Assembly: GCA_050575255.1 (NCBI GenBank)
Contig: JBNZDD010013678.1
Location: forward strand, 4,420,690 to 4,484,689
Direction of reading: 5' to 3'
Source of the DNA: Harriotta raleighana
Taxonomy: Eukaryota
DNA length: 64,000 bases
The position numbers were made by a program. This document shows positions 39,001 through 42,000 of the stretch, piece by piece; within the stretch, counting starts at the first letter, position 1; each line of letters opens with the position of its first letter.

Positions 39001-42000
39001 CGTTAAGCTTAAACATATATGGCACACTATTTACTTATTTAGATAGTCGTAGCTTTGCTTTATTGCTTTATTTGTTCGAATAAGTAAATACAACAACAAC
39101 AAAATTACATTTATAGAGCGCCTTTCACGTCGGGAGGCACAAAATACCTATTTTTCTGTCCTTTTAAATGTAAATAATGCAATTTCATTGGCAATTAGAC
39201 ACAGCTCATTGAAATTTAAGTCCAACTTTTATTTTAACTACATAAAGAACTTAATGAATTTTTTAGAAATTGAAATATATCACTGAATTTTATGCTTTAC
39301 CTCGAATATTTAATTGTTGGAACGTAATTTCCTTGTTGTGAGATGGCACGGGTAATTGGAAGTGGCCATTTGAATTATCCATTTTCTACTGTAAATTTGT
39401 GTCTTTTTATTTTTTACACAATAACTTAGCTATCAGCATGACTGGTATCCCATATTCCAGAGTGCAAGAAGCTCCAATATCCCCAAATTTCCCTTAATTT
39501 CTAGTTGTCAGGTGCTTTCCCTGCCTTTGGTCACCTTTCTACCCTTGCCCAAATGTAATTTCTTCAGAAGGCAGGGATAGCATCCTACAATTAGAAAATA
39601 AGGGGGACAAACACGCACATCTGCCAGTATTGTATTTATGCTCCCAGCAGGCAGGTAGGACTTTGGGTTGTCATTCTCAGCTTCTATTAGAAGGGAAATT
39701 GTGTCCCAGGTACCCTTGTTGAATTAAGTTTTAATGAACATAACTCTTATTATCTGTTGCTGTGTTTTTGCCCAGATGGAAAGTTGGCAGATATTTCCAC
39801 GAACTCAGACCCTTATTTGGAGGATTTGGTTGCTGACTATTACGAAAAAGCTACAAGCATGACTGATATTTCCACTATCTACCTCAGTGAGAGTGCACAC
39901 ACGCGGGTAAATCTACTCAACCATAATATCTCCAAAGGCCCCTGTGTTCTCTGTGGCATGGGCAGTTCACGGAGAGAGACTGTATATGGATGCCTTGAGT
40001 GTTCATTCAATGGACAGAAATATGTGAGACTGCATGTGGTACCATGTTTTGATTTGTGGCACAAAAGAGTAAAATGAAACACGATGCAGATAGTTACTAT
40101 TAGTGATCCAGATATGCTGACACATCTATAAGACCACACTAATATTTTCAGGACAATACTTTTGAAAAATATGCGAGTTGTATATTAATCAGTTCTGAAA
40201 CAGTATTAGAGTAATTAAAAAAAAGTTATTGGGCGTTTATCGAATGAGAAAACATTGCTAAAAAACTGTAGAGCTGTTCTTGCCTGGTAGAAACTAATTA
40301 AATCGCACAGGATAAGTGTGTCAGAGTAACACTATACACAGTTCTGTAGCTACTGTAGTTTACTTCCAGTAACAGTTACATAATATATGATTTCTCTCCC
40401 ATTATTGCCTTCTCAGAGGTTCTGTTTATGTATTCATGTTTTGCACCATTGCTTTCTTGTTATGTAACATACAATAACATTCTCATTTTTGTAGAGGTAG
40501 TTGAGTGCAATGAGTATCAAAAGTTTATTTGAATTTTTTTTAAGTTACAGATTTAGTGAGCTTCAAGTTGTTATGCATGAACAAATACTGGATACAACAT
40601 TATTCTCTATTTTGTGAAGCCTAATTAAAATATTATCTGTGTTCCATGTATTTGCGTTATTTTGTTATACATAGGTATTAAAGTGAGTCATATTTTGCCA
40701 GCATTGAAATAATTGAATTAATTAATTAACACATCAGCTTCAATAATCTTGATCTGGAATAATTTCTCCTTTCCGCGAATTAATATCATAGAGACTAGAA
40801 GAGAGAAATCAGATCAGGAATATATTATCGATGTTCATTTGAACTAACCCTGAATAGGATCTGTTTAAAAGTTTACCTCCATGAAGTTCACACCAACTGG
40901 AAATAACTACAGTGGAAAGTGCTGTGAATGAAAGAAATTTAGAACATTTATTTGAGTGGTCAAAGTACAATGCAAAAGTTAAAAATGCTCCCAAACTTTC
41001 ATTTCAATCGCATTGTTTTAGATTCCATCATACAATACACTTCAAAAATTCTGTATGTCAAAAAAAGGCTTAAATATTCAAAAAGGTTCATTGTGCCATT
41101 CTGTAGTACCACAGGAAATGTAATAAAATAAGCATACATAGTCATGTAATCACACGATCTATGTATTTCAGATCGTAGAAAAAGATTATGATAGAGGTCA
41201 AAGTGCTACAGCTCATCGTGATGATAAATGTTATATTCTCTGGCAGAAATGAAACCATCTCCATCATGATCATTTCTTTGCAGTATATCAGCCAACACGA
41301 GTTCACTGTAGGTAGAATCTTCACGCTTTTTTTCATCATTCTTTAATTCATTCTGCAAGTATACCTTCAGCTAGAATAAAAAAAGAAACTTTAAATATAT
41401 TTAAAGAAGCAAAATTAGTTTGATATTTGATCAAAATGGAAAACATGCAGATTGCAGCCTGAGAAACAGGCGAAAGTTGAGTACCCGAGCATAATTCTGA
41501 ACCAACCAATAATAAATCTCTTATGTTATTCTCAGGATTTAGATGCCTAATGTCTTTCTTTATGTTTATTTCTCATCCACTTAAGCTTGTTATTTATGTT
41601 TACTATAGGACCTCAACCACATGTTGTTAGAGCCTGCCCATCAATATTAGTGAGCATTTGGATTGGGTGGGGGAAAGTGAATGAATGCTATATAATGTTC
41701 AATTCATCCAGATGTGCACTTTCTAGTTTTAGAAAAAGGAAATATCATGCCTATCTTTCCTACAAAGAAAATAAATTTCTGTATACTAGATATAAATTAT
41801 ATGTTATATCAAATTATATATATGTGTATAGATATAGAGGGAGACACACAATATAAACACACAATACAAAATTAGTTATATAGCACTTTTCACGGTAGGA
41901 TGACATCCAAAGTTTATGGGACGCACACATATACAATTCATTGTAAAAACTGTTGTAGTACCTCATCTGAGGAAAGCTTTCGATCATTGTTCGAGTCGAT

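Follow-up and report, generated by a model that had tools for sequence, protein, structure and literature searches.

Pejvakin (PJVK), the product of a human deafness gene, is to our knowledge an odd member of the gasdermins, having neither an inhibitory domain nor a known activating protease nor a shown pore. Published accounts leave the origin and the fold of its C-terminal zinc motif open. Wang et al. 2023 (PMC10155998) regard pjvk as a copy of gsdme from which the final three exons, encoding the inhibitory domain, disappeared in early vertebrates. This conclusion is based on intron phases and synteny, lamprey has pjvk, and the authors are silent on the source of the new last exon of pjvk. 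Here, we describe the pjvk locus in a stretch of 64,000 nucleotides from Harriotta raleighana (GCA_050575255.1, contig JBNZDD010013678.1, positions 4,420,690 to 4,484,689 of the forward strand), hereafter the window. Its terminal PJVK exon encodes a cysteine-rich domain (CRD) that, judging from sequence comparison, was probably captured in ancient times from a piggyBac-type protein.

The closest described domains form the Pgm-type CRD class, which includes PiggyMac (Pgm) and its paralogues, Tetrahymena Tpb, PLE-wu, piggyBat and human PGBD2/3/4, and in which a His lies at a variable distance before CxxC-CxxC-C-C-H (PMC8086355). The upstream His is a zinc ligand and is required, and the Pgm CRD folds as a binuclear cross-brace of C1 topology, with ligands 1,4,5,8 at one site and 2,3,6,7 at the other (PMC8086355). 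The supplement of that study (Guerineau et al. 2021) lists CRD sequences for 30 proteins related to piggyBac, and the order H, CxxC, CxxC, C/H, C, H is found in PGBD4, piggyBat, PLE-wu, PGBD2/3, Pgm, PgmL and Lia5. The CRD of piggyBat, from Myotis lucifugus and solved by electron cryomicroscopy, has the same topology with one Cys3His1 and one Cys2His2 site, PGBD2/3/4 being probably alike, whereas the C1 domains of PKC and chimaerin carry two Cys3His1 sites (PMC11707139).

The gene at 35091..40077 of the window is a PJVK orthologue and belongs to the gasdermin family, since it has the gasdermin N-terminal domain, lacks the C-terminal inhibitory domain and is orthologous to named pejvakins. Five upstream coding exons, which correspond to the gasdermin pore-forming domain, were located on the forward strand by tblastn of Callorhinchus pejvakins (35091-35303, 35845-36039, 36398-36541, 36837-36953 and 37595-37684). 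The fifth extends alternatively to 37726 in other Callorhinchus models, and two of the upstream exon frames gave Pfam Gasdermin matches. Searches were made with the terminal exon alone, and full-length comparisons with database proteins. The terminal coding exon (39776..40077, forward strand) was delimited by its open frame, its AG acceptor and its identity to Callorhinchus. Specifically, the frame is uninterrupted from 39691 to the TGA at 40075-40077, and the splice acceptor comprises a polypyrimidine tract and the AG at 39774-39775, so that a phase-1 exon begins at 39776. The junction into this exon reads N/D-GKLADIS in two NCBI Callorhinchus milii models (P0001 and P0002), and one UniProt Callorhinchus model takes a second AG, at 39782-39783, as the acceptor. 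Over its 99 whole codons, the exon matched Callorhinchus milii pejvakin best (97% identity) and the other listed pejvakins, from sharks, rays, coelacanth, lungfish, birds, reptiles, amphibians and ray-finned fishes, with 71-91% identity, which marks the window as holocephalan and not human. A word-indexed protein search with the exon against longer targets returned an expectation value (E) of 0.01 or lower for 273 of 300 candidates, and among the 120 matches listed every named row was a pejvakin/Dfnb59, a PJVK-domain protein or a hypothetical gene model. A PJVK isoform of 321-322 residues skips the fifth coding exon in many species; the terminal zinc-finger exon was retained in every isoform seen.

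Three parts can be told apart in the terminal exon, all on the forward strand. The first 40 codons (39778..39897) encode a linker that is conserved across vertebrates and for which Pfam, even with E allowed up to 10, reported no family, DDE_Tnp_1_7 included. The CRD core follows (39898..40062), with eight putative zinc ligands that were recognised by sequence, by invariance and by a match to the piggyBac-type signature. The protein then ends with a short basic tail, KRVK (40063..40074), and the printed CRDs likewise end a few residues past the last His. The peptide at 39898-40074 agreed letter for letter with the one on which the original prediction of a piggyBac-like domain was based, and the whole CRD lies, as had been claimed, within one terminal exon (core 39898-40062 inside 39776-40077).

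The ligand order of PJVK (upstream His, CxxC, CxxC, Cys/His, Cys, His) is the published order of the Pgm-type class. We wrote our own signature from the printed spacer ranges, H-x(8,17)-CxxC-x(7,18)-CxxC-x(4,11)-[CH]-x(2,3)-CF-x2-[FYW]-H. When the window was translated in six frames (127,996 residues), this signature had a single match, at 39898-40062. None of 200,000 shuffles of the 65-residue CRD peptide matched, while 68 of 70 PJVK rows did, the two misses being P0129, which carries a two-residue insertion, and P0153. Judged by these matches, the CRD pattern is in excess of chance.

PJVK and the printed CRDs were compared by eye. The block at 39970..40002 (forward strand) aligned with R-x-E-T-R-Y-x-C-x-x-C of PGBD4 and piggyBat, and 7 of its 11 residues, around the second CxxC, were identical to RKETRYFCAEC of PGBD4. 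The C-terminal block at 40030..40062 (forward strand), of the [LIV]-[CH]-x(2,3)-C-F-x-x-[FYW]-H type, shared 7 of 11 residues with LCVVPCFEIYH of PGBD4, plus three conservative ones, and 5 of 11 with piggyBat; this C-terminal signature is also present in PLE-wu, PGBD2, PgmL1/2/3/5 and Lia5 (PMC8086355). When the first CxxC was added (CVLC in PJVK and CKIC in PGBD4, 2/4 identical), the three ungapped blocks had 16/26 identities to PGBD4, and 10/19 in the non-ligand columns. The binomial tail for at least 10 of 19 identities was 3.4e-8 if each column matches with p=0.06, and 1.4e-4 with p=0.15. These figures are subject to the caveats that PGBD4 was selected post hoc as the closest among the 30 printed CRDs, that the blocks were chosen by eye and that two six-residue indels were needed to align the two proteins. 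The PGBD4-type motif that the original prediction had invoked is real, as it is printed in the supplement of PMC8086355. The prediction also held in stating that the likeness goes beyond the Cys spacing, for the upstream His, the R-[RK]-E-T-x-Y-x-C-x-E-C block (7/11), the L-[CH]-V-V-P-C-F-[DE]-x-[WY]-H block (7/11 identical to PGBD4) and the terminal position with a basic tail all agree. PGBD4 and the PF13842 profile thus share with PJVK two motif blocks, the upstream His, the short basic tail and an alignment over profile positions 12-59 of 60. They differ in ligand 6, which is Cys in PGBD4 and His in PJVK, in the two indels, in a profile score of 17.1 bits against the 24 required and in the DDE_Tnp_1_7 domain, which PJVK lacks.

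With piggyBat, the segment from the first through the second CxxC could be aligned ungapped, and 8/20 residues (C, C, R, E, T, Y, C, C) were shared. The piggyBat ligands run H, CxxC, CxxC, H, C, H with x12 between the CxxC pairs, H-T stands at the first ligand and R-x-E-T-x-Y before the second CxxC, and the domain occupies the end of the protein. Its ending, LHKGACFEKYH, fits H-x3-C-F-x2-aromatic-H, with His at ligand 6 as in PJVK, and its reported Cys3His1 and Cys2His2 sites are those expected from the PJVK ligands. In contrast, the PJVK loop before ligand 6 is six residues longer and the spacer past the first His three residues shorter. Non-ligand identity reached only 6/24 (tail 2.5e-3 at p=0.06 and 0.14 at p=0.15), and HMMER missed the similarity. 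Moreover, the piggyBat CRD follows a DDE core and binds the transposon-end palindrome as a dimer, whereas that of PJVK follows a gasdermin domain. The piggyBat residues R543 and E545, which contact DNA bases (PMC11707139), align in the ungapped block with PJVK R31 (R, K, Q or P) and E33 (E; D in cyclostomes).

Paramecium PiggyMac, whose structure was solved by nuclear magnetic resonance (NMR; 6ZOP, PMC8086355), shares the upstream His as first ligand with the PJVK order. PiggyMac-like paralogues share the x10 loop and the C-F-x2-F-H ending; in particular, the x10 spacer before ligand 6 of PJVK is that of PgmL5, PgmL2 and Lia5. PiggyMac differs from PJVK in its His-Cys2-His and Cys4 sites, its C-x3-H ending and its low sequence similarity, and its CRD binds no DNA and the histone H3 tail weakly (PMC8086355). 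A T. ni piggyBac-type CRD was rejected because its pattern is different, CxxC-CxxC-CxxH-CxxC.

The eight putative ligands, five Cys and three His, are numbered along the 65-residue CRD peptide counted from 39880: H7 (39898-39900), C22 (39943-39945), C25 (39952-39954), C38 (39991-39993), C41 (40000-40002), H52 (40033-40035), C56 (40045-40047) and H61 (40060-40062). All of them were invariant in 70/70 aligned rows, comprising the window CRD and 69 database PJVK proteins, which span from the lamprey Lethenteron camtschaticum (P0131) and the hagfish Eptatretus burgeri (P0132) to birds. Examination of lamprey and hagfish PJVK had been proposed as a check; both proteins, named pejvakin in the database, kept all eight ligands, indicating that the CRD predates the cyclostome-gnathostome split. 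By analogy with the NMR mapping of PiggyMac and the description of piggyBat, we infer that ligands 1, 4, 5 and 8 (H7, C38, C41 and H61) would bind the first zinc in a Cys2His2 site, and ligands 2, 3, 6 and 7 (C22, C25, H52 and C56) the second in a Cys3His1 site. Counted from the C-terminus of a mammalian protein with an assumed length of 352 residues, on which this mapping depends, C328 corresponds to C41 and C343 to C56, one in each putative zinc site. In mammals, C328 and C343 are reported to be essential for the recruitment of LC3B and the pexophagy induced by reactive oxygen species (review PMC8147788, citing Defourny et al.).

A simpler explanation would be a plain four-Cys zinc ribbon, in which neither the flanking His residues nor the last Cys serve as ligands, and PGBD4 is resembled by chance, as may happen among Cys-rich peptides. 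The deafness literature indeed annotates the zinc-binding motif at residues 305-331 (PMC12605547), which correspond to the four-Cys core, and thus limits it to the CxxC...CxxC part. In addition, the best sequence matches in the PDB were zinc ribbons of the eL37/eL43 type (E 0.009-0.43), headed by ribosomal protein eL37 (E 0.009), and no usable structural model supported eight ligands, as two AlphaFold2 runs with 21 and then 70 PJVK rows reached a predicted local distance difference test (pLDDT) score of 44 and 51. However, H7, H52, C56 and H61 were as invariant as the core cysteines across the 70 vertebrate rows, and function depends on C343 (C56), a residue beyond the annotated motif. The ten non-ligand identities to PGBD4 are improbable by chance, and the eL37 matches are confined to the first CxxC and its surroundings, some 20-25 residues. 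We regard the ribbon as very unlikely.

The profile evidence was ambiguous between zf-Tnp_2 and C1_2. On the terminal exon, Pfam reported C1_2 with E 0.0062 (17.3 bits, residues 49-78 on profile positions 13-42 of 48) and zf-Tnp_2 (PF13842) with E 0.026 (15.5 bits, residues 49-95 on positions 12-59 of 60). With the window CRD alone, C1_2 scored 18.5 bits (residues 15-44, positions 13-42 of 48), short of its gathering score of 26, and zf-Tnp_2 scored 17.1 bits (E 0.0084, residues 15-61, positions 12-59), where the gathering score is 24. Among 22 CRD-only sequences, zf-Tnp_2 matched 20 (best E 0.0029) and so did C1_2, with equal or better values (best E 7.8e-4); zf_C2H2_ZHX (6/22) and zf-UBR (3/22) were the next families. 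In 12 full-length proteins, C1_2 was found in 8 and zf-Tnp_2 in 7, and full-length PJVK from lamprey and hagfish had C1_2 as its only zinc-finger match. All of these scores stayed below the respective gathering scores. They are also fragile, for one and the same domain reached 15.5 bits with zf-Tnp_2 when the exon was scanned and 7.6 bits within the full-length protein P0003. PF00130 (C1) had no match in the exon or the CRDs at E up to 10.

These searches bear on a second explanation, namely that PJVK ends in a C1/DC1-like binuclear finger of cellular or unknown origin, which would resemble piggyBac CRDs only through a shared C1-like cross-brace architecture, owed to convergence or to a much deeper ancestry and not to a capture by PJVK. 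C1_2 was the top Pfam match of the exon and the sole zinc-finger match in the cyclostome proteins, and no search returned a significant transposase match. C1/DC1 domains (PF03107, PKC-type) belong to the topological class of piggyBac CRDs, and their CxxC-x12-CxxC core with Y-x-C gave the best Pfam E-values. A near-equal C1_2 score is nevertheless no surprise for a CRD type with C1-like topology, and for the same reason, the published structures having assigned it C1 topology, fold likeness fails to separate the two origins. Against a C1/DC1 finger, the C1_2 alignment stops after the four-Cys core, whereas that of zf-Tnp_2 extends to the last His. C1 domains have two Cys3His1 sites, in contrast to the five Cys and three His of PJVK, which would make a Cys2His2 and a Cys3His1 site as in piggyBat, and the ending of C1 is another one, while PJVK ends in H-x3-C-F-x2-[WY]-H and carries an R-x-E-T-x-Y block, both as in the printed piggyBac CRDs. 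DC1 domains also occur mainly in plant proteins. Altogether, a finger of C1/DC1 descent appears rather unlikely. The original prediction had named an equal or better match to cellular PHD, RING or C1 domains as evidence against a transposase origin. Such evidence was found in part, for C1_2, both profiles being below threshold; PHD and RING fingers were rejected, having support from neither Pfam nor the ESM Atlas.

Neighbours in the ESM Atlas pointed to piggyBac families. Among the 30 nearest clusters, 14 carried PF13842 (top score 0.94, with 199/256 features) and 16 no family. When the PF13842 clusters were set aside, the nearest named clusters, with scores of 0.85 and 0.81, carried the catalytic domain of piggyBac (PF13843). 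The neighbours were mostly oomycete and arthropod clusters, and no C1, PHD or RING family was among them, a further point against a C1/DC1 descent. The recognition value of 2151 lay below the 2300 mark, so that little weight can be put on a high score; of 100 shuffled proteins, four to ten attain 0.9.

Beyond this low recognition value, the equal or better C1_2 matches, the low-pLDDT models and the sub-threshold zf-Tnp_2 scores, several searches weigh against a transposase origin. A phmmer search with the 65-residue CRD against 1,835,955,588 representatives returned 14 sequences at E ≤ 0.001, all of them PJVK CRDs and none a transposase, so that PJVK stands far apart from all other sequences. 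In the PDB (177,635 sequences), neither profile nor single-sequence searches found a piggyBac, piggyBat or Pgm chain, and Foldseek against the PDB with the better model (pLDDT 51) gave 0 matches at E ≤ 0.001 and 6 at E 4.5-9.8. The word-indexed search with the CRD profile and near-length targets recovered only PJVK (19/322 candidates), the weakest match being a carp 'hypothetical protein' (P0151) that is a frameshifted fragment of the PJVK last exon. When the CRD of the 220-residue protein P0069 was searched against targets longer than 385 residues, a length chosen to shut out normal PJVKs, 8/8 matches were PJVK or mis-fused models. At the locus itself, no transposase family was found by Pfam in 76 frames of 30-74 residues (37730-39775 and 40078-42500, both strands) or in 139 frames of at least 75 residues across the whole window. 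Among the database proteins, P0062 and P0155 represent artefacts, long models in which PJVK has been merged with neighbouring genes unrelated to it. A tblastn search against plasmids gave two chance matches and nothing else.

The original prediction had suggested looking for transposase remnants upstream of the terminal exon; the Pfam frame scans recognised none in the last intron (37727..39775, forward strand). Such a lack of local remnants is expected because half a billion years have elapsed. Likewise, the CRD of PJVK follows a gasdermin domain and has no DDE_Tnp_1_7 core, behind which the CRD of piggyBac transposases lies. A missing core is what domain capture predicts, so that the claim is one of descent from the family and not of PJVK being a transposase. 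The proposal of a gasdermin-transposase chimera was thus upheld in part. Its gasdermin half, that PJVK derives from GSDME and lacks the autoinhibitory C-domain, agrees with PMC10155998, and its transposase half is favoured by the motif, the ligand order, the piggyBat-like ligand make-up and the ESM neighbours, with the lack of a significant transposase hit and the equal standing of C1_2 on the other side. On balance, we consider it likely that the terminal exon encodes a binuclear cross-brace finger of the piggyBat/PGBD2-4/PiggyMac type, with C1-like topology, that derives from the CRD of a piggyBac-like transposase.

The published loss of three gsdme exons fits a replacement of the inhibitory domain by the CRD. 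In such a scenario, gsdme would have duplicated in the vertebrate stem lineage and the three exons encoding the autoinhibitory domain would have vanished from one copy. The 3' end of a piggyBac-like element, taken up as a terminal exon, could then have become the new end of the gene, the catalytic core having never been included or having been lost. Since homology alone gives no direction, a piggyBac-like element might instead have taken its CRD from a host PJVK-like gene. Nevertheless, this CRD type is printed for piggyBac-derived proteins of ciliates, insects, bat and human (PMC8086355), the ESM neighbours are mostly from oomycetes and arthropods, PJVK arose in early vertebrates (PMC10155998) and the exhaustive phmmer search found the PJVK CRD in 14 PJVK-type representatives only. 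A transfer from host to element is thus hardly credible. No invertebrate gasdermin with the CRD motif surfaced in phmmer over the 1.84 billion representatives.

Fusions of host genes with transposases are known from CSB-PGBD3, SETMAR, GTF2IRD2 and KRABINER, in which splicing joins the exons of a host gene to a last exon of transposase origin (10.1101/2020.05.07.082677), as is proposed here for PJVK. Those proteins still contain the greater part of the transposase or its DNA-binding domain, are for the most part young and act in the nucleus. In contrast, PJVK would have retained only about 60 CRD residues, its fusion would be older than the vertebrate crown group, and the host part is a pore-forming-family domain of a peroxisome-associated protein. 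As a case of transposase-domain capture, the PJVK CRD would be unusual in its age, in the retention of the CRD only and in its host partner. The text of the Cosby et al. preprint (10.1101/2020.05.07.082677) contains no mention of PJVK, pejvakin or gasdermin. No paper linking pejvakin to piggyBac was found in a literature search in which most papers were judged from search listings.

Regarding function, the CRD would no longer serve transposition. It is most likely a zinc and redox interaction module, each step from zinc binding onward being proposed by us: the domain would be a two-zinc cross-brace with redox-sensitive zinc thiolates, and their oxidation could loosen it and expose an LC3-binding region. 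A more far-reaching version seems to us quite unlikely as a whole. In it, PJVK would be a vertebrate-wide gasdermin-transposase chimera more than 500 million years old that has preserved, of the transposase, just the finger by which the transposon end was bound, together with the R-x-E-T-x-Y loop that reads DNA bases in piggyBat. This finger may bind nucleic acid or dimerise, and its two zinc-thiolate sites would act as a redox switch linking oxidative stress from noise to pexophagy in hair cells. Should the assignment to the piggyBat/PGBD class be true, the zinc motif of PJVK would be redefined from a four-Cys site to an eight-ligand, two-zinc cross-brace that includes C343 and three invariant histidines. 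The piggyBat and 6ZOP structures would become templates for deafness variants in the terminal exon, and it would become testable whether zinc release acts as a redox switch and whether the domain dimerises or binds nucleic acid. It would also add a very old transposase capture, of a CRD only, fused to a non-nuclear host protein.

The remainder of the window contained further genes on both sides of PJVK. Upstream, four forward-strand frames at 9318-13859 represent exons of an OSBP-like gene, with matches to Oxysterol_BP positions 1-58, 57-104, 149-198 and 187-263 (E 4e-22 to 2e-6). An exon of a protein with a double-stranded RNA-binding domain lies head-to-head with PJVK on the reverse strand (32434-32874; dsrm E 4.9e-7, DND1_DSRM E 2.4e-7), a place that is occupied by PRKRA in mammals. 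Downstream, two short reverse-strand frames at 41209-42126 with weak EF-hand matches (E 0.0015-0.0028) may be 3' exons of an EF-hand protein; FKBP7 is the mammalian tail-to-tail neighbour of PJVK. At the far end, a titin-like immunoglobulin I-set array (59576-64000, reverse strand) included a 595-residue frame running off the window end, with I-set matches in four stretches (E 2.4e-67). The window contained seven single N, which were left as they are, and its observed/expected CpG ratio was 0.45. An Rfam scan of the window found no 7SL-like (Alu-like) repeat and one tRNA match at 54506-54576 (forward strand; 32 bits, gathering score 29), for which ARAGORN made no call; either a degenerate tRNA gene or a repeat that derives from a tRNA may account for this match.

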